Below, piece after piece: positions 2,536-60,323 of a stretch of DNA of 64,000 nucleotides. The position numbers and the translations under genes are program-made. The DNA comes from a virus. Its lineage: Duplodnaviria; Heunggongvirae; Uroviricota; Caudoviricetes. Under the pieces are notes generated by a model. The model was given only the letters and a program-made list of their open reading frames with translations, had not been told where the DNA came from and did no database searches. The DNA is taken from positions 248,029 through 312,028 of the IMG/VR virus record IMGVR_UViG_3300032007_000003; one strand, 5' to 3'. Within the stretch, counting starts at the first letter, position 1, and every line of letters starts with the position of its first letter.

Positions 2536-2735
2536 TATGACTAGTAGTGACTTTGAAATAGCAAATACAAGAATTCATAGTATACTGACAGAGATTGATT
2601 TACATGAGAATAAAATTGTAGAGCTTAAACATGAATTAGAAGATATTAATAATTTCTTAAAAAAATAAAGCATACACAGCTCACCACTGTGGTCAATTCG
2701 AAAGGATTGTGGTTGAGAAACCTATGCTTTTAAAT

Positions 2736-2818
2736 TGTGGAGTTGGGGAGTAGACAAACCCAAGGGTCTGTAAAACCCTCGCCATTTGGCTTCGTAAGTG
2801 CAAATCTTACCTCCACAA
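2736..2818 (+). tRNA. tRNA-Tyr(GTA), type II
   Basis: Acceptor TGTGGAG/CTCCACA. Anticodon stem AGGGT/ACCCT with loop CTGTAAA. Variable arm GCCATTTGGC. T-arm GTAAG-TGCAAAT-CTTAC. Confidence 0.65.
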
Positions 2819-2828
2819 CAAAATAAAT

Positions 2829-2909
2829 CTAGGTGTAACTGGTAATAGGTTTCCAACTGCATTTGGAATGCAGGCGTAATGCATGGGGGTTCGAGTCCCT
2901 TCGCCTAGA
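2829..2909 (+). tRNA. non-canonical type-II tRNA-like gene (anticodon arm TTCCAA-CTGCAT-TTGGAA)
   Basis: Acceptor CTAGGTG/CGCCTAG, a canonical T-arm and a variable arm with a TGCA/TGCA stem. The anticodon arm is a 6-bp stem with a 6-nt loop, or alternatively a 5-bp stem with an 8-nt loop. A paralog lies at 3329-3410. Confidence 0.4.
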
Positions 2910-2942
2910 CAAAGGAATCTTGCAGCAATAGGTATAAGCATC

Positions 2943-3011
2943 AGGCATGTAGCTCAATGGTTAGAGCCTTGGATTTTACCAAGAGATTAGGGTTCGACTC
3001 CCTACGTATCT
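2943..3011 (+). tRNA. tRNA-Lys(TTT)
   Basis: D-arm TAGCTCAATGGTTAGAGC. Anticodon stem CTTGG/CCAAG with loop ATTTTAC. T-arm TAGGGTTCGACTCCCTA. Confidence 0.65.
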
Positions 3012-3039
3012 TTGTTTAAAGGATTCCGATTTTTAACAT

Positions 3040-3113
3040 GGTGGTTGTAGCTCAGTTGGTAGAGTACCAGATTGTGGCTCTGAGGGTCATGGGTTCGAAT
3101 CCCATCTTCCACC
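3040..3113 (+). tRNA. tRNA-His(GTG)
   Basis: An extra G-1 pairs with discriminator C73. D-arm GCTCAGTTGGTAGAGT. Anticodon loop TTGTGGC. T-arm ATGGGTTCGAATCCCAT. Confidence 0.65.
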
Positions 3114-3129
3114 CAAAAAAAAGTTATCA

Positions 3130-3167
3130 AAAAATTTGGAATTTAATTTTTTTTTGTATATCTTTGC
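3130..3167 (+). promoter_or_regulatory. conserved promoter copy upstream of the tRNA-like element
   Basis: AAAATTTGGAATTTAATTTTTTTTTTGTATATCTTTGCA. Confidence 0.5.
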
Positions 3168-3196
3168 AAAGTATTTCATAGGCAACAAATACTAAA

Positions 3197-3323
3197 GGAA
3201 ACATACAGCAAGTATTAATAGGTTATAGCATTAAACTGATAATTTAAGGGTCGTTGGTTCGAGTCCAACCCTCCCCACAAAAAATTAAACTTGGGGAGGT
3301 AGCTAAGATGGATAAATGTTTCC
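3197..3323 (+). ncRNA. permuted tRNA-like element (3' half Ile-GAT-like, then 5' acceptor, closed by GGAAACA...TGTTTCC)
   Basis: Order: motif GGAAACATACAGCAAGTAT; anticodon arm TTAAA-CTGATAA-TTTAA; T-arm GTTGGTTCGAGTCCAAC; 3' acceptor CCTCCCC. A 16-nt loop and the matching 5' acceptor GGGGAGG plus a D-arm-like TAGCTAAGATGG come next, before TGTTTCC. Confidence 0.35.
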
Positions 3324-3328
3324 GAAAA

Positions 3329-3410
3329 TAGGGGAGTAACTGGTAATCGGTTTCCAACTGCATTTGGGGTGCAGGCCTTAGTCGGCATGCGGGTTCGAGT
3401 CCCGTTTCCC
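3329..3410 (+). tRNA. non-canonical type-II tRNA-like gene, paralog of 2829-2909
   Basis: Acceptor AGGGGAG/TTCCCCT. The D-arm ACTGGTAATCGGT and anticodon arm TTCCAA-CTGCAT-TTGGGG match the first copy. T-arm GCGGGTTCGAGTCCCGT. Confidence 0.4.
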
Positions 3411-3465
3411 CTACAAGTTGATGTAAATCAATAAATTACATAAATAGTATAGAGTGTTTTGAATT

Positions 3466-4509
3466 TTGGTTGATTTTTATGAAAGTTCGGCTATATATTA
3501 TATAGAAATGTATAATTATATGGATGAATTAATAAGTAAAATCAGGAAAATGAAATTTGAACAAGGGTGTTCAAATTCTGATATTTCACTTGCGCTAGGT
3601 GTAACAATGGAGAAAATAAAAAGGGTTACTTGCAAGAGTTATGATGAAATACTCAAAAGAAAAGAAACAAAGGAAAAAGCAGAGGAAGAGTTTGTCGAAT
3701 TAGTCAAAAAATATCTTCCACTTTCAAACTCGTTAAATCATTTGTGTAATAACTTAGGTTTAAGAGGTGTGGATGGCTATTATAAGAAGTTAAAAAGAAT
3801 AATAAAAGAATATAACTTGTCAACAGAGCATTTTGGTAGTATTAAGCTATCTAATAATGGCGGTAGTAGAAATATGTACACTGCAATGTCTGATGACGAA
3901 TTCTTTGTAGAAAATTCTAATCGTTATGGAGCATCGATTATCAAAAGACTAGTAGATGGTGGCTATAAGGAATATAAATGCGAGGGAGAAAATTGTGGAA
4001 TTAACGAATGGAATGGAAAGCCATTAAGATTGCAAGTTCATCATATAAATGGAGACCATCACGATAATAGAATAGAAAATTTACAACTATTATGTCCTAA
4101 TTGCCATACACAAACAGATACTTATGCAAGAAACAATATTGCTAAAACAAATAGTTTTAAAATTACAGATAGGGTTAACGAAATATTAACTGGTTCTGAA
4201 AGTTCTTTTAAACCAAAAGATATTGAAGAAATAAAAAAGGAAATATTACCGCCAAAAGAAAAAAAATATTGTCAAAACTGTGGTAAAGAAATAAAAGGTG
4301 ATGGTGAAAAATATTGTTCTCCAGAATGTGCTGAAAAAGCTAGGAGAAAATTTGAAGTCACATCAGAGCAACTTATAAAGGATTTTAAAGAAATTAAGTC
4401 GTTTACTGGTGTTGGAAAAAAATACAATGTTAGTGATAATGCGATAAAAAGAAGAACCAAAAAACTTGGAATATATGATGAAATAAGGCAATTCATCACT
4501 CCAAGGTAA
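3466..4509 (+). CDS. HNH homing endonuclease (paralog 1)
   Basis: 'HHINGDHHDNRIENLQLLCPNCH' is an HNH motif. There are C-terminal CxxC pairs and an N-terminal HTH-like region. The true start is uncertain; the track starts at a TTG. Confidence 0.7.
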   Translation: MVDFYESSAIYYIEMYNYMDELISKIRKMKFEQGCSNSDISLALGVTMEKIKRVTCKSYDEILKRKETKEKAEEEFVELVKKYLPLSNSLNHLCNNLGLRGVDGYYKKLKRIIKEYNLSTEHFGSIKLSNNGGSRNMYTAMSDDEFFVENSNRYGASIIKRLVDGGYKEYKCEGENCGINEWNGKPLRLQVHHINGDHHDNRIENLQLLCPNCHTQTDTYARNNIAKTNSFKITDRVNEILTGSESSFKPKDIEEIKKEILPPKEKKYCQNCGKEIKGDGEKYCSPECAEKARRKFEVTSEQLIKDFKEIKSFTGVGKKYNVSDNAIKRRTKKLGIYDEIRQFITPR

Positions 4510-4523
4510 AGACATTTGATGTT

Positions 4524-4853
4524 ATGGGTGAATATAGGAAAATCACAAAGGAAGACATTAATTTTCCAAAATATTGTCTCTTTTTCATAAAAAAAATACA
4601 AGAGGCTATCGATAAGTCAAAAAATGACTTGAGTTATGTGGAATTCTTAAAGGTAGAAGTTGAGACAACTTATCCATATTGTTCTGATGCCTTTGATTTG
4701 ATAGCAAAGACATTTACTAGGAAGGGTCTTGAATTGAGAACTCCAACGTTTAAGATGGATAAGGTAGATGGAATACCACATTATCTATACAAGTGGGGCG
4801 TAAGGAAGGAGGTTGATTACGATGACCTCCCTTTTGACTATGATGATTGGTAA
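4524..4853 (+). CDS. hypothetical protein
   Basis: 109-aa ORF with an acidic C-terminus. Confidence 0.4.
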   Translation: MGEYRKITKEDINFPKYCLFFIKKIQEAIDKSKNDLSYVEFLKVEVETTYPYCSDAFDLIAKTFTRKGLELRTPTFKMDKVDGIPHYLYKWGVRKEVDYDDLPFDYDDW

Positions 4854-5012: not shown

Positions 5013-6044
5013 ATGAAGAAAATTCTTTTAATGTTGGCACTGCTTAGTGCCGTAGTGAGTGCGAATGCACAGATTGCAACTGAGAATAGCAATGCTTTGG
5101 ATAACATTAGCTTTGGAGTGACAGCAGGTGTTTCTACACCGCTTGATTTCAACTCAATGTTTCCACTTAACACAAACGTTGGTTTGAAACTTCAGAAGGA
5201 TTTCACACCTTATTTTGGTTTGCAAGTTGAGGGCGTTGCTTTCCTTAACGACAACCATTTCAGTGACCTCAAAACCGCAGTAAAGGCTACTAATGTAGGC
5301 GTGAATGGTGTTTTCAACCTTTCTAATATCTTTGGTGGATATAGAGGTACTCCACGTGTATTCGAGGTTAGTACTGTGACTGGTATTGGTTGGCTACATA
5401 CATGGGACACACCAAACAACTTCTTGACAGCGAAGACTGGTCTTGACTTGGCTTTCAACCTTGGCAAGAAAAAGGCAAGTTCGATTGTAATTACTCCAGC
5501 AGTATATTGGAATCTGAACAAGTTCGGTAATATCTACTTTGATAAGCGTGGTTCACAGCTTGCTATCAATGTATCGTACATTTACCACTTCAAGACAAGC
5601 AATGGAACACATCACTTTAAGACTTATGACATTGGTGCAATGATTGGTGAGATTGACCGTTTGAATGGTGCATTGTCAGAGTGTGAGAGTAGAGAGTCAA
5701 AGGTGATTGAGAAGATTGTTGAGGTTCCAGTTACAAATGCTGAGACAGCAACAGTCGTAACTGATAACGGTGAAAAATGGGTTGTATCATTTGCAAACGC
5801 AAGTGCAAGTCTTACTGACGAAGCTAAGTTCGTTCTCAATGGTGTTGGTGAGGATGCTATCGTGGATATCGTAGCAACTGCATCACCAAGTGGTACAAAG
5901 GCTTTCAATCAGAAGCTTTCTGAGAAGCGTGCCGAGGCTGTTGCAAACTACTTAACCAATCGTGGTGTTAAAGTAAATAGCGCAATCGGTAAGGGCGTAG
6001 ATGCTACAGCTGGTAAAACTGCTGTTGTCACAACAGCACAGTAA
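5013..6044 (+). CDS. OmpA-family outer-membrane protein (signal peptide plus C-terminal OmpA peptidoglycan-binding domain)
   Basis: Signal peptide MKKILLMLALLSAVVSANAQ. The C-terminus 'NQKLSEKRAEAVANYLTNRGV...GKG' fits the OmpA-like domain pattern. Confidence 0.55.
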   Translation: MKKILLMLALLSAVVSANAQIATENSNALDNISFGVTAGVSTPLDFNSMFPLNTNVGLKLQKDFTPYFGLQVEGVAFLNDNHFSDLKTAVKATNVGVNGVFNLSNIFGGYRGTPRVFEVSTVTGIGWLHTWDTPNNFLTAKTGLDLAFNLGKKKASSIVITPAVYWNLNKFGNIYFDKRGSQLAINVSYIYHFKTSNGTHHFKTYDIGAMIGEIDRLNGALSECESRESKVIEKIVEVPVTNAETATVVTDNGEKWVVSFANASASLTDEAKFVLNGVGEDAIVDIVATASPSGTKAFNQKLSEKRAEAVANYLTNRGVKVNSAIGKGVDATAGKTAVVTTAQ

Positions 6045-7785: not shown

Positions 7786-7922
7786 GGAAACATCCAGCAA
7801 ATAAAGAGTTATTATTGTAAATTGCTACCGTAACGGTTTGTGGGTTCGACTCCCACACGTCTATCTTAACGAGGGCGTTGGTGAAATTGGTAAACACGGC
7901 TATTGGAGAATAAAATGTTTCC
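7786..7922 (+). ncRNA. permuted tRNA-like element (T-arm then a Leu/Ser-like 5' half; closed by GGAAACA...TGTTTCC)
   Basis: Motif variant GGAAACATCCAGCAAATAAAG, then T-arm TGTGGGTTCGACTCCCACA, then a type-II-like 5' half GAGGGCG-TT-GGTGAAATTGGTAAACAC, then AAAATGTTTCCG-TCTTTTT. Confidence 0.3.
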
Positions 7923-8453
7923 GTCTTTTTATATTATAGTATAGCTAGAAGCAAATAAAAAATAAAATAACTGTTAAACGGAAAGTTGAAAAGGTTTCCC
8001 TACACAATAGGTAAAGAAGTTATTCACCTTTACTGAGGGATTATACGCAAAGAGAAAACACCTCGACACACTCTCCTACAATAAAATTGGAAGACACGAA
8101 CCGTAACCGTATACCCAGATGTATACGCATCCGACTTTCCTTGTGAAAGTGGCAAAAGCTTGAATCGAAAATGCAACCGTTGTGTGCTTTGGAGCTTGAT
8201 ACCGAATCAAAAATAAGCAGTGTATGATTCTATGACTTAATTTCGCTTAACAGTAACTTGCGCCTATGGGGGAATAAGTAGACCCGTATGTCTTAGGAAC
8301 ATATGTTGAAATACACGTATCAGTGCAAGTCTGATTAGGCGCACAAAAAAAGGTGCTACGACAGACTGTGGAAGCCAATTTGATAGTGGCGAGTTCGTAG
8401 AACGCTGTAGTTAAATGGAATTTGATAAACAGCCTTTTTATTAATAATTCTTA

Positions 8454-8492
8454 AAAAATTTGGTTATTCCAAATATTTTTCGTATATTTGCA
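8454..8492 (+). promoter_or_regulatory. conserved promoter copy
   Basis: AAAAATTTGGTTATTCCAAATATTTTTCGTATATTTGCA. Confidence 0.5.
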
Positions 8493-8685
8493 CAGTAATT
8501 GAAAATGTTATGGGTAGAATACTTTTTATATTGTTCGTAGCTTTTATCATGACACTTGTTGTTGTAGTTATCAATAACTACCTCAATAAGAGAAATGGTA
8601 ATACGATGTCAAGGGAAGAGAAAAGAAAGTCTTTCAATGATGACATTGAGGCTGTAGCCAAGGAAATTAAAATGAGAAGAGAAGT

Positions 8686-8970
8686 ATGATTTTATGTTAT
8701 ATAATTGGTGGTCTCATTCTTGGTGGTTTTATAGTATCACTACTATTCTCCTACGAGATTAGACACGCAATAACAATTCTAGACACAGAGCCTTTCCTTA
8801 AAGGTGATTATGCGGAAGAAGAACCATATGTTAAGTATCATAATGTTTATTGCAAGAACTGTAAATTCTTCGATGGGACAGCAACATGCCTACATGAACA
8901 TAGTTTCGGTATCTTGAGCAATCATAATACAATTATATGCAAAACAGATGGGTTCTTTGAACCAAAATAA
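8686..8970 (+). CDS. small membrane protein with C-terminal Cys cluster
   Basis: A hydrophobic N-terminal segment, then CKNCKF...CLHEH. Confidence 0.35.
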   Translation: MILCYIIGGLILGGFIVSLLFSYEIRHAITILDTEPFLKGDYAEEEPYVKYHNVYCKNCKFFDGTATCLHEHSFGILSNHNTIICKTDGFFEPK

Positions 8971-16573: not shown

Positions 16574-17491
16574 ATGAAACAATATAAATATAATTATTTC
16601 TACAGGATAGAAAATTTAATTGATGGTAAATTTTATTACGGAATCCACAGTACTGACAATATTGAAGATGGATATATGGGTTCTGGGCATCGTTTAGTAG
16701 AAGCGATGAAAATTTTTGGGAAAAATAATTTCAAAAAAGAGATATTAAAAAATTTTGAAACACGTGAGAAGGCTTCGGAATATGAGGCATTAATGGTGAC
16801 AGAAAATTTAGTTCACGATAGAAATTGTTATAACGTTAAATGTGGTGGCGATTATGGCACTACTAGTGGAACAATATTAGTAAAGGACAAAAACGGAAAA
16901 TGGTCTAGAGTGTCGGTTGAAGATGAACGTTATAAAAGTGGCGAACTAAAGAATATAATGGCTAGTTTAATATCAGTGTATGATAAAAAAGATAACGGTT
17001 ATAAGACAATAACACCAGACGAATTCCATAGCAATGGCGATAGATATATTGGGGTAACAAAAGGGAAAGTGGTTGTCAAGAATGACAAAGGTGAAATATT
17101 ACTTGTTGATGTTGAAGATGAACGTTATAAACGTGGTGAATTAACTGTGGTGTGGAAAGGAAAAAAACATTCAGAAGAAACAAAGATGAAAATTTCTGAG
17201 ACGCACAAAAGAAACCATCACCAACAAGGCGTAAGTAATTCACAATATGGAACGTGTTGGATAACAAAAAATGGAGAAAATAAAAAGGTAAAGAAAGAAG
17301 ATTTGAATATGTTTTTGTCTGATGGGTGGAAAAATGGTAGAAGTAATTTAAATGTTACAACACCTTCAGATTTAATAGATAAAAATAAAGTTATTAGTTT
17401 ATACAAGAAATATAATAATTGGGGTAAAGTCGCTGAAGAATTAGGAATTAGTAGAATGACAATAATGAGGTACAAGAAACGCAACCTATAA
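16574..17491 (+). CDS. GIY-YIG homing endonuclease with C-terminal HTH
   Basis: 'YFYRIENLIDGKFYYGIHS' is the GIY...YIG module. The C-terminal 'NWGKVAEELGISRMTIMRYKK' is HTH-like. Confidence 0.65.
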   Translation: MKQYKYNYFYRIENLIDGKFYYGIHSTDNIEDGYMGSGHRLVEAMKIFGKNNFKKEILKNFETREKASEYEALMVTENLVHDRNCYNVKCGGDYGTTSGTILVKDKNGKWSRVSVEDERYKSGELKNIMASLISVYDKKDNGYKTITPDEFHSNGDRYIGVTKGKVVVKNDKGEILLVDVEDERYKRGELTVVWKGKKHSEETKMKISETHKRNHHQQGVSNSQYGTCWITKNGENKKVKKEDLNMFLSDGWKNGRSNLNVTTPSDLIDKNKVISLYKKYNNWGKVAEELGISRMTIMRYKKRNL

Positions 17492-17535: not shown

Positions 17536-17618
17536 GCTGGGGTGGCTGAGAGGTTGAAAGCACTGGCTTTGTAACCCAGAGGCGAAAGCCCACGCAGGTT
17601 CGAATCCTGTCCCCAGCT
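17536..17618 (+). tRNA. type-II tRNA (Ser/Tyr-like D-arm), anticodon loop region CTTTGTAAC unresolved
   Basis: Acceptor GCTGGGG/CCCCAGC (perfect). D-arm GGCTGAGAGGTTGAAAGCA. Variable arm GGCGAAAGCC. T-arm GCAGGTTCGAATCCTGT. Confidence 0.5.
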
Positions 17619-17627
17619 CTAAAAAAT

Positions 17628-17754
17628 GGTGACGTAGCTCAGTCGGTAGAGCACTAAAAAATCAACGTGTTGCCTCGTGTGCGCAACCCACAGCAAATAT
17701 TATGATGAAAGGCTGTTAACCTAGGGGTCTGTGGTTCGAGTCCACACGTCACCG
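17628..17754 (+). tRNA. interrupted tRNA (about 55-nt insertion after the D-arm carrying the CCACAGCAAATAT motif)
   Basis: 5' GGTGACG-TA-GCTCAGTCGGTAGAGC and 3' TGTGGTTCGAGTCCACA-CGTCACC pair perfectly across 126 nt. An Asn-like CTGTTAA loop lies before the T-arm. Confidence 0.45.
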
Positions 17755-23565: not shown

Positions 23566-23984
23566 CAAACATAATGGGCTTGAAACGGTATAGATTGGCT
23601 GTAGTTTGGTAAGAGACAAGCAGTGGGCATACACTTTCAAATAGCAAAAAAATTAAACGCAGAGAACGTAGATTCTCCTGCTTACGAGTTCGCTATTGCA
23701 GCGTAAACGTGAGCCGAGAGGCTAGGCTCTTAGGAACAGAACATCCTAGCAAATTTTTTTTTGATTAGAAGAAAGGTTCCTGGTTCGAGACCTTGGGAGC
23801 ATTGCTTTAGTTCAAAACGCTTAGGTGTGTTGTAGCTGTTGACAGCTTGGTAGAACATTCTGATAATCAAATGGTGGAATCGGTGACTCTAGTCATCCCC
23901 TAGTGTAATGGCGATACACTTTAATAAAACGTTCTGAGGAAGAAAACCTCTTACCAAAAATTGAAAAGTTTGTATAATCTCTTA

Positions 23985-24027
23985 TGGGACGCAGAACAAG
24001 ACGTGGGTTCAACTCCCACCAGGTCCA
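23985..24027 (+). ncRNA. tRNA-like minihelix
   Basis: GGGAC-GCAGAACAAGA-CGTGGGTTCAACTCCCAC-CAGGTCC. Confidence 0.25.
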
Positions 24028-24045
24028 CTAACAATTAGTTACGTT

Positions 24046-26164: not shown

Positions 26165-26297
26165 TGTTTATATAGGGATATAGCTCAGTGGTAGAGTAAT
26201 TTTGTTGCGATTTAAGCTATACACAATACTAACTTCGGAACGTATTGATGCTTTAACTGATAATGAAACGGTCATTGGTTCGAATCCAGTTGTCCCT
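26165..26297 (+). tRNA. interrupted tRNA-Ile(GAT)-like (about 53-nt insertion between the D-arm and anticodon stem)
   Basis: 5' AGGGATA-TA-GCTCAGTGGTAGAGT; 3' TTTAA-CTGATAA-TGAAA-CGGTC-ATTGGTTCGAATCCAGT-TGTCCCT. The acceptor pairs across 133 nt. Confidence 0.4.
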
Positions 26298-26459
26298 GCG
26301 TACCGTGATTATGATGCTTCCACGTATGATAAGCATCTTACTTATTATAGTAGGTTAACATGCTATAGTAGATTGGAGAAGTTTTGGCTACTAATTGTGG
26401 CTAGTAAAATGAAAGTTTTCATCCAATCGTTTTTTATACGGCTTAATATTTAATTATAT

Positions 26460-28380: not shown

Positions 28381-28456
28381 TGGGCATATGGCAGAGTGGT
28401 CGATTGCAACGGCTTCTAGGACCGTAAAAGGCGTGGGTTCGAATCCTACTATGCTC
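28381..28456 (+). tRNA. candidate amber-suppressor tRNA (anticodon CTA)
   Basis: Acceptor GGGCATA/TATGCTC. D-arm GGCAGAGTGGTCGATTGC. The anticodon stem ACGGC/ACCGT (C-A mismatch at 31-39) with loop TTCTAGG gives CTA. An alternative is a 4-bp stem with the 9-nt loop CTTCTAGGA. T-arm GTGGGTTCGAATCCTAC. Confidence 0.4.
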
Positions 28457-28840
28457 ACTACGGCTTGGCGTACCCATATTGGGTGCTGAAATAGGTTAGA
28501 CAAGCACAAGCCACGTAAGAAATGGCAGACATGCAGTAATGCGGTGCGAGGATTAGTCCCTTGCCCTAGTTCCTTGATGGTTAAGAGGATACCTTTATGG
28601 TTGGTATAGGCAAACCTATTTTATGTTATGGCAAGCGAAAATAAAAAGAAAAAAGCAAAGAATTCTTATTTAGCCAATGCTAATAAGACTACTGATAAAT
28701 TGAAGAGAATTAACTTTTACAATAAGATAAATAGAGCAGAAAATAAGTGTAAAGTTAAGGATTGTTAAAGTTGAATTAATCATTTGGTTGGTTCAACTTT
28801 TTTTCGTATCTTTACATCAGAAATTTAAAAACAAGGAAAT

Positions 28841-30800: not shown

Positions 30801-30877
30801 GGACTCGTATCGGCTCTGTCTCATAAGCAGTTGAAACCGTAGTTGGTTACAGGTGGGTTCAAGCCCCTCCGAGTCCA
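30801..30877 (+). tRNA. tRNA-like (perfect acceptor and T-arm, interior unresolved)
   Basis: Acceptor GGACTCG/CGAGTCC. T-loop GGTTCAAGCCC. No clear anticodon arm. Confidence 0.35.
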
Positions 30878-31003: not shown

Positions 31004-31078
31004 TGCGGGGTGGCGCAGTTGGTTAGCGCACTAGGGGGCATGCCCTAGAGGTCAATGGTTCGAATCCATTCTCCGCTA
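31004..31078 (+). tRNA. tRNA with CAT in a 6-nt anticodon loop (CTAGGG-GGCATG-CCCTAG)
   Basis: D-arm GCGCAGTTGGTTAGCGC. The anticodon arm has a 6-bp stem and a 6-nt loop. T-arm AATGGTTCGAATCCATT. Acceptor TGCGGGG/CTCCGCT. Confidence 0.4.
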
Positions 31079-31588: not shown

Positions 31589-32422
31589 ATGAAGAAGTTT
31601 TTAACAATGTTTTCATTCGTCATTATGTTGACGATGAGTATGACAATGACATCTTGTATCGGTTGCACAACAGCAAATGCTGACGAGGAAATTGTTTTGA
31701 TTGACAAGCCTTGGTTCTTAGGTCATGGTGGTGTACAAAGTGAACCAGTTGAAACTGGTCTTGAGTGGATTTGGTGGTCTACTGACACAGAGACTTTCAA
31801 GATTGTGCCTTTTAAGCATCAAGTGGATATGGATGATTTGTTCAGTGATGACAATACTCCGTTGGATTTCCATACCATTATAATTACACAGATTCAAAAG
31901 GGTAAATCACCAATTCTATTGCAGAACTACGGTACTGATTGGTTCAATACCAACCTTTATAATTACTACTGCAATCTTGTGCGAGACCATATTTCACAGC
32001 ATAGTCCATTTGACCTTATGTCGAATCGAGCGATTCTGAATGAGATTGATGCAAAGGTGCTTAAGCAGATGCAGAGTTATGTGGCTGAGTTATCCAAGGA
32101 GAAGGAGTTTCCAGTAACGGTTCGCCAAGTAACTATTGGTAAGGCAATTCCTAACAAGGAGCAGCTTGCGGAAATGAATAAGACAGCGAAGGCAGTGCAA
32201 GCAAAGCAGACTCAAGAGCGACAAGTTGAGGTTGAGTTGGCTCGTGAGAAAGCTGAGAGACAGAGAGCAAAGGCTGATAAGGCTTATAGGGAAGAGCTTG
32301 GTCTTAGTACGCAAGACTTCATTAGTTTGAAGTGGATTGAGACTATCGCAGCTAAGAATGGCGCAAATATTGATGTGATGGTTGGTGGTGGTTCTACCCC
32401 AATGTGGAATATCAAACATTAA
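31589..32422 (+). CDS. lipoprotein with C-terminal coiled coil
   Basis: Signal/lipobox ...MTSCIGC. The C-terminal K/E/Q/R-rich coiled coil is AKAVQAKQTQERQVEVELAREKAERQRAKADKAY. Confidence 0.45.
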   Translation: MKKFLTMFSFVIMLTMSMTMTSCIGCTTANADEEIVLIDKPWFLGHGGVQSEPVETGLEWIWWSTDTETFKIVPFKHQVDMDDLFSDDNTPLDFHTIIITQIQKGKSPILLQNYGTDWFNTNLYNYYCNLVRDHISQHSPFDLMSNRAILNEIDAKVLKQMQSYVAELSKEKEFPVTVRQVTIGKAIPNKEQLAEMNKTAKAVQAKQTQERQVEVELAREKAERQRAKADKAYREELGLSTQDFISLKWIETIAAKNGANIDVMVGGGSTPMWNIKH

Positions 32423-56302: not shown

Positions 56303-57697
56303 ATGGAATTATTCAAAGAAGATAAACATAAAAAGCTTTTAAAGAAGTTACAAGATTGCATTAAGGGCACTGCATTTGAAAATAACGTCTATCTTGTAGG
56401 TGGTTGTGTGAGAGACGCTTTGCTAAATGAACCCATTAAGGATTTTGATATTGTGGTATCAATAAAAAATGGTGGCATTATGCTTGCTAACCTATTGGCT
56501 GCAAAGGAAAAGTGCTATAAATTGGGTAGCAATCCAGTGGTATATCCCAAATACGGTACTGCAAAGGTTACTCTGTATAATGATGAAGACCTTAAGGACT
56601 TGGACATTGAGTTTGTTCAGACTCGTAAGGAGCAATATCATGAGGATAGTAGAAATCCAGAACAAGTATTTGGTACAGTTGAAGAGGATGCAAAACGCAG
56701 AGATTTAACCATCAATTCATTGTATTATAATATAAGTGATGAAAAGATATATGATTTTAACTTAGGTATTGATGACTTGGTTAATCAAGTTATTAAAACA
56801 CCGACTGACCCAGATATCACATTCAATGATGACCCATTACGTATATTGAGGGTTATCAGATTCTCTTGTCGTTATGGATGGGGTATTGAAAAGAATACTT
56901 GGTTAGGTATGGTTAAGAATGCTCATCGTATTAAAATTATCTCACAAGAGAGAATCACTGATGAAATTTCAAAGATTATAACTAGTCCAAACCCTTCAGT
57001 TGGTATAAGGAAAATGTTGTTCTGTGGTCTTCTGAATAAGGTGATGCCAGACATATATGACTTAACCAATGCATATGAATCAAGGAATCCAATGCTAACG
57101 TCATTTGACCATACCATGATGGTTCTTGATAAGGTACAGCCTTATATTGAGACTAGATTGGCTGCGTTATTCCATGATGTTGGTAGAATCGCAAGTGAAG
57201 CCAATAGAGGAATCTCACAAGATTTGTTTAGTGCTGATGTGGCTGTTTGTGACTTGAAACTCATGAAGTTCCCAAATGCAATAGCAGATTCTGTTGAGAA
57301 TTCAATTAAGTATCATAGATTCTTTAGAAACTATGCTGATGGTACTGTTCCACCAGATAAGAAGATAAGAAAGTTCATCAACTTATGTGGTGACAACATT
57401 GGGAACGTTGTTGACTTGATGAATGCCAACAACTTGTGTCAAACTTATGACAAGAAAAAGAGACAAGCATTGGACATTCTGAATAGGATTGAAGAACTTG
57501 ATGAGCTTGAAGAGGCTAAGAATGTTAAACTACCCATCGATGGAAAAGATATCATGAAGGAGTTTAATCTTAAGTCTGGACCTCATATTGGTAAACTTAT
57601 GGATTGTTTGAAGGAAGCTTACTTTGATAATCCTAAAATTACTAAAGAAGAGTGCTTTAAGTTGATAGAGGAAAAGATAAAGGTCTTGGCGGTATGA
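56303..57697 (+). CDS. cca: CCA-adding tRNA nucleotidyltransferase with HD domain
   Basis: 'VYLVGGCVRDALLNEPIKDFDIVV' is the class-II nucleotidyltransferase head. An 'LFHDVGR' HD motif is present. Confidence 0.75.
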   Translation: MELFKEDKHKKLLKKLQDCIKGTAFENNVYLVGGCVRDALLNEPIKDFDIVVSIKNGGIMLANLLAAKEKCYKLGSNPVVYPKYGTAKVTLYNDEDLKDLDIEFVQTRKEQYHEDSRNPEQVFGTVEEDAKRRDLTINSLYYNISDEKIYDFNLGIDDLVNQVIKTPTDPDITFNDDPLRILRVIRFSCRYGWGIEKNTWLGMVKNAHRIKIISQERITDEISKIITSPNPSVGIRKMLFCGLLNKVMPDIYDLTNAYESRNPMLTSFDHTMMVLDKVQPYIETRLAALFHDVGRIASEANRGISQDLFSADVAVCDLKLMKFPNAIADSVENSIKYHRFFRNYADGTVPPDKKIRKFINLCGDNIGNVVDLMNANNLCQTYDKKKRQALDILNRIEELDELEEAKNVKLPIDGKDIMKEFNLKSGPHIGKLMDCLKEAYFDNPKITKEECFKLIEEKIKVLAV

Positions 57698-58916: not shown

Positions 58917-59392
58917 TGGAGAAATTAACATTAGATGTATTTAAGCATTTTAGGTTCTTCTTGAAAAAGAACAAGATATATGACCTATTTATGCGGAATT
59001 TCAGAAGCCAACCATATGAGAAGATTCATAATGTAGATGCATTCTTACCTAATTACATAAACATAATGAGAGAGTATTCTACAACACGTATGGGTAAAGA
59101 ATATCTCAGTGTATATGGAGCGATGTATCTAACGTTTAGGTCTTTTTGTTGGGCGAATAGAGCAGCATATAAGACACCAAATTCATGGAGCAAGTATTGG
59201 GCTACTATTTGTTTAAAATGGGCACTATATTGCATTAGGCATAATATTGAGATATGCACAGACGAAGACCTTGGCAGACTTATAGAATATTGGGATTCAT
59301 GCAAGTGGATTGACATAAGCAAATTATCATTTCAAGATAGAATAGTTATACAACAATTAAAGTGTAAACACAATAATGGAGACATATACTAA
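58916..59392 (+). CDS. hypothetical protein
   Basis: 158-aa ORF. Confidence 0.4.
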   Translation: MEKLTLDVFKHFRFFLKKNKIYDLFMRNFRSQPYEKIHNVDAFLPNYINIMREYSTTRMGKEYLSVYGAMYLTFRSFCWANRAAYKTPNSWSKYWATICLKWALYCIRHNIEICTDEDLGRLIEYWDSCKWIDISKLSFQDRIVIQQLKCKHNNGDIY

Positions 59393-60323
59393 AATAGATA
59401 CAATGCTAAAAAGATATATCTTTGATGGCAAGGAGTGTCCGAATAAGGATTGGTTGAAGTTCAAGAATAAGATTATCCTTGGCGAGTTCTCATTTAATGA
59501 GGCTGAGTATTTGTTCAATTGTCTTTGGGAAGCCACAAGTAAAATAGACGGTACAAATTCCAAGATTGCTTTCTTTCCTTCAGATGGACACATCGAAGTA
59601 GGTGGCAAGACCGACAAAGCTAGTTCACAGCATGGACAGTTTGAAATGCTCCAAGAGATTGGTGAGCGTATCAAGCCACAACTCTGCGCTATGTTCCCCA
59701 AGGAGTCAGCACGTTTTGTTCCAGTTAAGGGAAATGACAATAAGGTACAGTATTATGACGTACATGCTGATTTTAACGAGTATGACGAAAAGACTATGAT
59801 TGCTAAGTTGCAAGCCAAGTTCGATAAGAAGGATACTGTTATATCAGAAGGCTTATATGGTGTGGAACTTGAGGAAGTTCCTATCTACATCTACGGTGAG
59901 TATTTCGGTACTGGTATTCAGAAGTGTGGTTCTCGTTACATTCAGAATGGTAACGGCTTCCGTGTATTCGACATCAAGCAGCAAGGTTGGTGGTTGCCAA
60001 AGGAAAATCGTGATGCAATGTGCAAAGGTCTTGGTCTTGAGCAAGTACCATTCTTGGGCGTTATGACCTTGCGTGACATTGAGGATATGGTTCGTAGTGG
60101 TTTCACCACAAAGTTTGAGGGGGCTGCTGACCCAACCATGATTGAAGAGGGTATTGTAGCACGTCCTATCATTCCTCTTTGTAGTGGTAATGGTAATCGT
60201 ATTATCGTTAAGGTAAAGTATTGCGATTACATTGAGTATGACACTGTTCGCAAACAGTTCTCTGATGAAGAGTTTGCTGAGTTCGATAAGTGGTATCATG
60301 AGAATATTGAAAATAAGAAATAG
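59376..60323 (+). CDS. ATP-dependent RNA ligase (Rnl2-like nucleotidyltransferase)
   Basis: Motif I 'SKIDGTN' (KxDG without the Arg typical of DNA ligases). Motif IV-like 'EGIVARP'. Motif V 'VKVKY'. Confidence 0.5.
   Translation: METYTKIDTMLKRYIFDGKECPNKDWLKFKNKIILGEFSFNEAEYLFNCLWEATSKIDGTNSKIAFFPSDGHIEVGGKTDKASSQHGQFEMLQEIGERIKPQLCAMFPKESARFVPVKGNDNKVQYYDVHADFNEYDEKTMIAKLQAKFDKKDTVISEGLYGVELEEVPIYIYGEYFGTGIQKCGSRYIQNGNGFRVFDIKQQGWWLPKENRDAMCKGLGLEQVPFLGVMTLRDIEDMVRSGFTTKFEGAADPTMIEEGIVARPIIPLCSGNGNRIIVKVKYCDYIEYDTVRKQFSDEEFAEFDKWYHENIENKK

Follow-up and report, generated by a model that had tools for sequence, protein, structure and literature searches.

Two probable tRNA-Pro(UGG) genes with a standard anticodon arm and a remodelled body in the tRNA array of an uncultured huge phage

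Several kinds of tRNA that depart from the usual cloverleaf have been described. Allo-tRNAs of the 8/4 and 9/3 types, together with 8/4 tRNA-Ser and tRNA-His, occur in bacteria and in phage tRNA clusters (PMC5389517), yeast mitochondrial tRNA-Thr(UAG) provides a natural precedent for an anticodon loop of 8 nt (PMC7609411), and the tRNA-Lys of phage T5, set against PARIS, represents phage tRNAs proposed or shown to escape an anticodon nuclease (PMC11464382). Here we analyse two tRNA genes, termed copy 1 and copy 2, in a tRNA array of an uncultured huge phage; the window, i.e. the whole stretch of DNA that was analysed, comprises 64 kb of a ~410-kb genome (IMG/VR record IMGVR_UViG_3300032007_000003, positions 248,029 to 312,028). 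A sequence-only reading had ascribed to both genes a 6-bp anticodon stem closing a 6-nt loop. We consider it very likely that they are instead two tRNA-Pro(UGG) genes with a standard anticodon arm (5-bp stem, 7-nt loop), derived from ordinary tRNA-Pro and carrying a remodelled 5' module, and that the 6-bp hairpin is incidental. Their parts are as follows.

2829-2909, + strand: copy 1, tRNA-Pro(UGG), 81 nt up to A73 (ARAGORN, Rfam RF00005, minimum free energy (MFE) fold)
2829-2835/2902-2908: acceptor stem of copy 1, CTAGGTG/CGCCTAG, with C1-G72; followed by U8 and A9
2838-2839: 2-nt insert AC of copy 1, between positions 9 and 10
2840-2855: D-arm of copy 1, UGGU/UCCA with a U13·U22 mismatch, loop AAUAGGUU; followed by A26
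2857-2873: anticodon arm of copy 1, CTGCA-TTTGGAA-TGCAG, 5-bp stem and 7-nt loop
2864-2866, + strand: anticodon TGG of copy 1, in the loop TTTGGAA with U33, A37 and A38
2874-2884: variable arm of copy 1, 11 nt, stem GCG/UGC; followed by the T-arm, 2885-2901
2851-2868, + strand: 6-bp hairpin of the sequence-only reading in copy 1, TTCCAA-CTGCAT-TTGGAA
3330-3413, + strand: copy 2, tRNA-Pro(UGG), 84 nt up to A73 (ARAGORN, Rfam, MFE); acceptor stem AGGGGAG/TTCCCCT (A1-U72), 5' module as in copy 1
3358-3374: anticodon arm of copy 2, CTGCA-TTTGGGG-TGCAG, with G37
3365-3367, + strand: anticodon TGG of copy 2
3375-3388: variable arm of copy 2, 14 nt, stem GCC/GGC; followed by the T-arm, 3389-3405
3352-3369: 6-bp hairpin of the sequence-only reading in copy 2, TTCCAA-CTGCAT-TTGGGG

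The sequence-only reading had delimited copy 1 exactly and placed copy 2 at 3329-3410, which is to be amended to the coordinates above. It had correctly noted that the acceptor stems differ and that both copies possess a long variable arm; the D-arm, which it called identical, is nearly so, the segment from position 8 to the anticodon being the same in both copies except for a single D-loop base (A2847 versus C3348). The body is characterized by two extra nucleotides in the 8-9 connector, an effectively 3-bp D-stem and the enlarged variable arm, while A14, G18 and G19 fall in their usual places in the Rfam alignment. Neither copy encodes CCA; both end with A73-CAA. Both have the hallmark of class II tRNAs, a variable region of more than 10 nt that forms a stem-loop, its stem in the copy 2 type covarying to ACC/GGU. 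They do not belong to a class II isoacceptor family (Leu, Ser, Tyr or Sec), as their anticodon is UGG, which conforms to the NGG pattern of tRNA-Pro with G35 and G36, and their orthologs are class I tRNA-Pro.

All methods of structure prediction that were applied select the proline cloverleaf. ARAGORN labels both copies tRNA-Pro(tgg). Covariance model (CM) scoring with RF00005 was run and returned 35.3 bits for copy 1 (scanned alone) and 32.0 bits for copy 2, both aligned in the Pro fold, as well as 51.4 bits for a third locus at 31004-31078, which the sequence-only reading had grouped with them; all three clear the gathering score of 29 bits. RNAfold likewise gives the Pro cloverleaf as the MFE structure of both copies and of a variant from a related locus (L006); the Pro anticodon stem has pair probabilities of 0.77 in copy 1, 0.95 in copy 2 and 0.38 in this variant. 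The strings of the 6-bp hairpin are present as reported. However, this hairpin pairs the 3' strand of the D-stem plus A26 (UUCCAA) with the anticodon loop (UUGGAA) and is mutually exclusive with the anticodon arm, and ARAGORN, the Rfam model, the MFE structure and the pair probabilities all choose the 5-bp/7-nt arm. The canonical features of that arm (5 bp, 7-nt loop, U33, purine 37) are present in both copies according to the CM alignment, the MFE structure and one compensatory pair.

The latter comes from comparison with relatives. Searches of GenBank phages revealed no close or cultured relative: the DNA of 2600-3500 matched only generic tRNA-His, and an 843-aa open reading frame (ORF) gave a single match of 26% identity, to an uncultured 635-kb phage. 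IMG/VR and metagenome contigs were therefore used for the comparison (sequences from it are given L numbers), the closest being two uncultured viral contigs of ~410 kb, IMGVR_UViG_3300028048_000038 and IMGVR_UViG_3300021387_000463; the IMG samples behind the related contigs are 3300028048, 3300021387 and 3300028591. Eighteen related loci were retrieved via the 139-aa protein encoded at 2116-2535, and variants of the odd type, i.e. built like copies 1 and 2, were collected by pattern searches of viral and metagenome contigs. L013, L014 and L041 contain copy 1 unchanged, and acceptor-stem variants of it occur in L043 and L048; in the variants of copy 2 (L006/L040 and L037/L042), compensatory changes are found in the stems of the anticodon arm, the variable arm and the T-arm.

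On the six distinct odd-type sequences thus available, three of copy 1 type and three of copy 2 type, 99.3% of the cells of the Pro cloverleaf are paired, and both-sided changes affect four pairs of the acceptor stem, one of the anticodon stem, two of the variable stem (GCC/GGC versus ACC/GGU, and GCG/UGC) and two of the T stem. The pair in the anticodon stem is U-A in the window and C-G in L006 and L037, so that a fold with a 7-nt loop is backed by covariation in the Pro arm, with none in the 6-bp hairpin; this is the outcome that the sequence-only reading had itself named as refuting its claim. Because the sample is small, two subtypes with three variants each, we regard the covariation as support and not as proof. 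The D-stem never varies; how exactly it pairs is therefore deduced from the CM alignment and the conserved tertiary positions. An alternative D-arm with 5 bp (AACUG/NGGUU) and a 5-nt loop, which is the MFE solution in copy 2 only, was rejected, as G18G19 would no longer lie in the loop, 5 nt would be left as a linker ahead of the anticodon stem, and copy 1 would mispair. A geometry of allo-tRNA or tRNA-Sec type (8/4, 9/3 or 8/5) was likewise rejected, since the acceptor/T configuration is 7/5 in all six variants; an eighth pair would be U8·U.

The genomic context identifies the ordinary counterparts of the two genes. Related loci have the order Tyr, Pro(UGG), a tRNA with a 6-nt loop (see below), His, Pro(UGG), a conserved small ORF, Gly(UCC) and Gly(GCC); copies 1 and 2 occupy exactly the two Pro slots, which in 12 of the 16 loci reaching them hold ordinary tRNA-Pro of 74-75 nt. 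By location in the same locus and by homologous arms they are orthologous to recognised tRNA-Pro. Copy 1 and the canonical gene L016:8887 have in common the acceptor CTAGGTG/C[G/A]CCTAG and the T-arm GGGGG-TTCGAGT-CCCTT, and copy 2 has AGGGGAG in common with L014:7733. The odd anticodon arm CNGCA-TTTGGNN-TGCNG matches the canonical CGGCA-TTTGGGA-TGCTG, and the D-loop A.TAGGT. of the canonical genes is preserved, while the canonical G15-C48 is replaced by A15-U48 (read from the sequences). Copies 1 and 2 would thus descend from an ordinary 74-nt tRNA-Pro(UGG) at the same slots, from which the acceptor, T-arm, D-loop and anticodon arm would have been kept; the acquired module would comprise the 2-nt insert 9/10, the D-stem UGG(U)/(U)CCA, A15-U48 and the variable arm with its 3-bp stem. 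Because a near-identical module stands in two acceptor/T backgrounds, we infer that it may have spread by gene conversion between the two Pro genes, ~500 bp apart. The claim of paralogy made by the sequence-only reading stands for copies 1 and 2, tRNA genes with a shared 5' module; the third locus has a different body and history. A gene for an HNH endonuclease (3520-4509) lies directly downstream of copy 2. Its homolog follows an AGGGGAG-type Pro gene in L014 (complete, 7915-8841) and in L006 (a 42-aa remnant, 4442-4567), and L013 has a canonical CGGGGTG Pro gene at that slot and no HNH gene, which suggests that homing-endonuclease traffic shapes the locus and replaces the Pro gene.

As to function, both copies would be transcribed as part of the tRNA array and then processed at their ends. 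CCA would be added afterwards, as neither gene encodes it and a CCA-adding enzyme is present in the phage (see below). The identity elements of the E. coli prolyl-tRNA synthetase (ProRS) are G35, G36, A73 and C1-G72; all are present in copy 1, and all but C1-G72 in copy 2, with the proviso that the rules of the actual host may differ. Charging by the host ProRS would proceed via G35, G36 and A73 (plus C1-G72 in copy 1), and the charged tRNAs would read CCN codons. Among 166 proline codons in 17 long ORFs, CCA is used 91 times, CCT 53, CCC 12 and CCG 10. From the CCA-adding enzyme, the use of CCA codons and the ProRS elements we take both copies to be putative working tRNA-Pro(UGG) genes. Mischarging by SerRS or LeuRS via the long arm was considered and appears unlikely, given A73, the 3-bp variable stem and the Pro anticodon.

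Several observations weigh against this assignment. The covariation comes from the few sequences named above; the CM scores (32-35 bits) are low against 45-72 bits for most other tRNAs of the window; neither the 9/10 insert nor the U13·U22 mismatch is standard; and the D-arm pairing, invariant across the six variants, is without covariation support. Copy 1 carries A37 in place of the G37 usual in tRNA-Pro, and the first acceptor pair of copy 2 is A1-U72 rather than C1-G72. Finally, the view is limited to the 64 kb of the window, and a canonical tRNA-Pro may exist elsewhere in the genome. A quite different fold was put forward by the sequence-only reading, in which TTCCAA/TTGGAA forms a 6-bp stem around the loop CTGCAT and the variable arm is long; written out in full, this fold has a short D-arm, ACT/GGT. 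It would imply unusual decoding or a non-translational RNA. The two copies and all six variants do allow the hairpin, with 100% pairing, it constitutes ~20% of the ensemble of copy 1, and its loop contains GCA, tRNA-Cys not being among the ARAGORN calls in the window. Nonetheless, it exhibits no compensatory change, just two one-sided A-U to G·U changes that weaken it, and the variable-arm stem that goes with it is broken in three of the six sequences. Its stem has a pair probability of ~0.2 in copy 1 and only 0.025 in copy 2 and 0.01 in the L006 variant (1-2.5%), and neither ARAGORN nor the Rfam model ever picks it. The fold would also abolish the arm homologous in sequence to the anticodon arm of the canonical orthologs, put GG at the start of the D-loop and lose A14. 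The 42 tRNA genes that ARAGORN finds in the window all lie on the + strand, from 1 to 40 kb. When they were surveyed for ungapped hairpins with 6 bp or more, with G·U allowed and loops of 3-9 nt, such chance alternatives were found in ~30, mostly off the cloverleaf (the latter judged by eye), so the existence of this one carries little weight, and since both copies share it by descent it counts once and not twice. We conclude that the hairpin is incidental complementarity and not a functional fold; that it should be the true structure is extremely improbable. A switch between the two hairpins, possible in copy 1 only and negligible in the copy 2 types, was judged unlikely.

The main rival to two functional Pro genes is that they are decaying duplicates of tRNA-Pro, pseudogenes in a fast-changing array exposed, for instance, to homing-endonuclease traffic. 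The low CM scores and the non-standard insert and mismatch fit decay, HNH and GIY-YIG-like genes are interspersed in the array, and degenerate tRNAs occur in it (a D-armless Met-like one of 22.7 bits at 30801-30877) and in a relative (a His in L001). On the other hand, four stems are kept paired by compensatory substitutions across the six variants, at least four independent contigs carry an identical copy 1 and two more a version that differs by compensated acceptor changes only, and U8, A14, G18G19, U33, the T-loop and A73 are intact; moreover, the two Pro slots of the window hold the odd type only, and in L006 the odd type is the sole Pro of the region. Taken together, this makes decay improbable. 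It has also to be considered that the Pro-type anticodon arm is kept while the body is adaptive: the insert, the long arm and the changes at positions 37 and 38 would resist a host tRNase, make the tRNAs decoys or alter their acceptance by enzymes. Evasion of anticodon nucleases through loop changes is a published hypothesis for phage tRNAs (PMC10264068), the loop departs from the canonical UUUGGGA at positions 37 and 38, an encoded RNA ligase and CCA-adding enzyme provide the phage with a toolkit for tRNA repair and maturation, and many of its class I tRNAs combine long variable arms with 3-bp D-stems. Against it, the remodelled features are tied to no nuclease or host, the anticodon loop is canonical apart from 37/38, and the variable arm is short (3-bp stem) and accompanied by the discriminator A73, as opposed to the G73 used by SerRS (PMC7609411). 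We rate this explanation as quite improbable, and the nuclease evasion, unusual decoding or non-translational role offered along with the 6-nt loop draw no support from loop geometry in copies 1 and 2.

A class II-like build is not confined to the two Pro genes. According to ARAGORN, a 3-bp D-stem and a long variable region are combined in Asn (88 nt), Thr (84 nt), Met (83 nt) and Val (80 nt) tRNAs of the window, and an enlarged variable region is also found in Met (93 nt, with a 4-bp D-stem) and Gly (79 nt).

Starts of the long-variable class I tRNA genes: 6246 (Gly), 12385 (Val), 13225 (Asn), 17536 (Thr), 27299 (Met), 39214 (Met)

These genes often lie beside a canonical copy of the same isoacceptor, and their orthologs in relatives gain or lose such arms. 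As many tRNAs of the phage are built in this way, a lineage-wide tolerance of, or selection for, the class II-like build is suggested.

The third locus, for which the sequence-only reading claimed the same deviation from the 5-bp/7-nt rule, is a real anomaly, unrelated to copies 1 and 2.

31004-31078, + strand: initiator-like tRNA(CAU) (ARAGORN; Rfam)
31031-31048: its anticodon arm, 18 nt, read as 6 bp with the loop GGCATG or as 5 bp with the 8-nt loop GGGCATGC
31039-31041: CAT

Here the reported arm CTAGGG-GGCATG-CCCTAG is present and the deviation holds, whereas it does not for copies 1 and 2. In the ARAGORN output the loop has 6 nt and the 'anticodon' two bases; the Rfam alignment has a stem of 5 bp and a loop of 8 nt. 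U33 is lacking, and in neither reading is the arm the canonical 5-bp/7-nt one. The placement of CAT on the 3' side of the loop, said to be common to all three loci, is shared only in the earlier fold: in copies 1 and 2 these letters are the last two 5' bases of the anticodon stem and position 32. Bacterial initiator tRNAs are marked by a 1:72 mismatch, three G-C pairs closing the anticodon stem, CAU and A11:U24. The third locus exhibits a U1·U72 mismatch, GGG/CCC beside the loop and CAU; its 11:24 pair is C-G and its loop is not of 7 nt. The syntenic gene in L050 is identical, and the ortholog in L051 has a different loop that is also abnormal (GGTACATGT, read as 5+9 or 6+7). Distant relatives possess 7-nt loops (CGCATAA in L052; TTCATAA on a 6-bp stem in L053), and a near-identical body with the canonical loop CTCATAA or TTCATAA is found in unrelated phage contigs. 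In the T stem, AATGG/CCATT of the window corresponds to AGTGG/CCACT of L051, a covarying change; therefore, the body is conserved while the 5' side of the loop changes. A conserved and covarying 6/6 fold was found neither in copies 1 and 2 nor here, where 6/6 is allowed but the loops of the orthologs measure 7, 8 or 9 nt. Candidate explanations of the anomaly are relaxed constraint, escape from a nuclease that targets initiator tRNA, and a non-decoding role; the unusual decoding proposed by the sequence-only reading is a further candidate here. In the weak 22.7-bit tRNA-like sequence nearby, at 30801-30877, a CTCATAA loop is accompanied by a long variable arm, and the D-arm is almost absent; the matching position of L051 is occupied by a normal tRNA-Met, and the gene in the window may be decaying.

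The neighbourhood of copies 1 and 2 contains objects that are stranger than the loci originally flagged. Between copy 1 and the His gene lies a tRNA (2943-3012; Rfam 45.6 bits) with the 5-bp anticodon stem CTTGG/CCAAG, the 6-nt loop ATTTTA and no nucleotide 26. In 13 distinct orthologs the arm is almost invariant and stem changes are compensated, and RNAalifold predicts the 6-nt loop without nucleotide 26; in the acceptor stem, 3:70 and 4:69 are repeatedly irregular (G·U, A·C or C·A). Most of the related contigs examined retain the gene at this place, after the first Pro slot and before His. No other 6-nt loop in the window is as well supported, and the sequence-only reading did not include it. 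Other unusual elements are the following.

3197-3323: circularly permuted tRNA-like gene, directly upstream of copy 2
3238-3240: its GAT, in the loop CTGATAA; acceptor 3' strand at 3270-3276, acceptor 5' strand at 3293-3299
Homologs of the permuted element: L013 7703, L014 7605, L016 8657, L019 11233, L023 8645, L029 1643, L026 7617, L028 7455
7786-7922: second bracketed element, found also at L013 11580 and L014 11967
Bracket motifs: at about 1391, 2913, 3197, 4868, 7785, 9942, 16427, 22418, 24919, 27386 and 39307
17628-17754: tRNA found by Rfam (47.1 bits) and missed by ARAGORN, with a ~54-nt insertion between positions 29 and 30, inside the anticodon stem
26174-26298: tRNA found by Rfam (41.6 bits) and missed by ARAGORN, of similar length and with a comparable insertion (by eye)

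The element at 3197-3323 is enclosed as a whole by an 8-bp helix (GGAAACAT/ATGTTTCC), within which the parts follow in the order D-stem 3' strand, anticodon arm, T-arm, acceptor 3' strand, 14-nt linker, acceptor 5' strand and D-stem 5' strand. ARAGORN accepts its rotated joins as tRNA-Ile(GAU). In nine relatives it is 96% paired, with both-sided changes in four of the seven acceptor pairs across the linker, and its anticodon loops vary (GAU, AAU, CAU and others). In the literature searched, the coverage of which was incomplete, permuted tRNA genes were reported from algae (and their viruses) and archaea only, and none from phages. The second element (7786-7922) has the same closing helix around a closed acceptor-like hairpin, a T-arm, a variable-arm hairpin and a D-arm (GTG...CAC), and looks like a permuted class II tRNA-like RNA; its three near-identical sequences give no covariation. 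Upstream of the permuted gene, at 3135-3166, we observed the motif TTTG-N20-TATCTTTG, which is kept in L013, L014 and L019. The promoter consensus of Bacteroidota is TTTG / TAnnTTTG, which we take this motif to resemble. Together with the ORF 5013-6044, which is OmpA-family lipoprotein-like, it hints at a Bacteroidota host.

The enclosing helix belongs to a bracket that recurs ~11 times in the array, RGGAAMNN-(A/T)(C/G)CAGCAAR, a payload and the complementary NNKTTCCY followed by a T-rich tract. Its strands covary (GGGAACA/TGTTCCC, GGAAGCT/AGCTTCC, GGGTACA/TGTACCC and others), and it usually begins right after the 3' end of one tRNA and stops just before the next. The payloads comprise the 6-nt-loop tRNA, the permuted tRNA-like RNAs and one GIY-YIG-like ORF. 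The latter (16574-17491, upstream of the tRNA-Thr at 17536 and inside the bracket GGGTACA 16427 / TGTACCC 17523) has weak matches to GIY-YIG and helix-turn-helix domains. The bracket matches no family in Rfam. A reading of the bracketed elements as the Y-RNA YrlA was rejected, because they score 15-27 bits with Rfam RF02553 against a gathering score of 69; Ro60/TROVE and RtcB were not found in the 20 ORFs scanned. In the insertion-bearing gene at 17628-17754, which reads as Asn-like GTT, the insertion contains a hairpin followed by ACAGCAA, like the bracket motif.

Over the whole window, the Rfam scan gave 39 tRNA hits and a tmRNA at 23576-24030. HNH and GIY-YIG-like endonuclease genes are interspersed among the tRNA genes, and two genes of tRNA metabolism adjoin the array on its downstream side.

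56303-57697, + strand: CCA-adding enzyme (tRNA nucleotidyltransferase), Pfam PF01743 (E = 4.7e-27) and PF12627 (E = 1.6e-15)
59376-60323: RNA ligase, Pfam PF09414

Together they could serve in the maturation or repair of tRNAs, perhaps in the joining of disrupted ones. The tRNA at 28382-28458 (77 nt; 86-92 nt and with a long variable arm in relatives) has the anticodon CTA of an amber suppressor, called 'Pyl' by ARAGORN; one of the 17 long ORFs ends with TAG, which may be recoded. The 96-nt 'tRNA-Leu(aag)' called by ARAGORN at 32316-32411 sits within a 277-aa ORF (31589-32422), has no Rfam hit and is probably a false positive.

A broader proposition is that the tRNAs of this huge-phage clade have been re-engineered lineage-wide and kept so by selection, the remodelling of copies 1 and 2 being adaptive and not drift. 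Its components would be the class II-like class I tRNAs, the 6-nt-loop tRNA, the expanded-loop initiator-like tRNA, the insertion-bearing tRNAs and the permuted genes with the helix-ACAGCAA bracket. We hold it only tentatively, as a rather unlikely generalization; if true, the re-engineering could serve to escape or decoy host defences that target tRNA, or could reflect processing by the phage via its RNA ligase and CCA-adding enzyme. Irrespective of it, copies 1 and 2 are not natural tRNAs that break the near-universal 5-bp/7-nt rule, and that claim should not be carried forward. Their interest lies in a class II-like proline tRNA with extra nucleotides in the 8-9 connector, apparently kept by selection in several phage genomes, which would bear on the structural tolerance of ProRS, EF-Tu and the ribosome. 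We found no description of a class II-like phage tRNA-Pro in the literature searched, whose incomplete coverage makes this weak evidence of novelty. Such genes are relevant to automatic annotation because they score near the tRNA cut-offs, and with the third locus, the 6-nt-loop tRNA and the permuted tRNA-like genes the clade appears to be a rich source of non-standard tRNA genes.

Compared with the systems described to date, copies 1 and 2 are closest to canonical tRNA-Pro(UGG), with which they share the 7-bp acceptor, the 5-bp T stem with a TTCGAGT loop, the 5-bp/7-nt arm with UUUGGRR, A73, A14/G18/G19, and the same slot and neighbours. They differ from it in the 9/10 insert, U13·U22, A15-U48 instead of G15-C48 and a stemmed variable region of 11-14 nt instead of 5 nt, as well as in A37 (copy 1) and A1-U72 (copy 2). 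The class II tRNAs of bacteria (Leu, Ser, Tyr) resemble them in the variable arm of more than 10 nt, the effectively 3-bp D-stem and the A-U type of the R15-Y48 pair; however, the anticodon of copies 1 and 2 is that of proline, a class I family, their variable stem has just 3 bp, and to our knowledge extra nucleotides between positions 9 and 10 occur in no class II tRNA. The third locus is comparable with bacterial tRNA-fMet by its 1:72 mismatch, three G-C pairs by the loop and CAU, and its body is near to that of phage initiator-like tRNAs with a CTCATAA loop; unlike initiator and enlarged-loop tRNAs, it has no U33, a loop of 6 or 8 nt (7 or 9 in L051) and C-G instead of A-U at 11:24. The phage tRNAs thought to escape nucleases (PMC10264068, PMC11464382) are similar to copies 1 and 2 in being phage-encoded, in differing at positions 37/38 from canonical relatives and in the presence of an encoded RNA ligase, whereas copies 1 and 2 deviate mainly in the body and not in the loop. 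Allo-tRNAs (PMC5389517), finally, are likewise deviant yet apparently functional tRNAs of phage clusters, often with long variable arms, but copies 1 and 2 retain the 7/5 configuration, and an eighth acceptor pair would be U·U.

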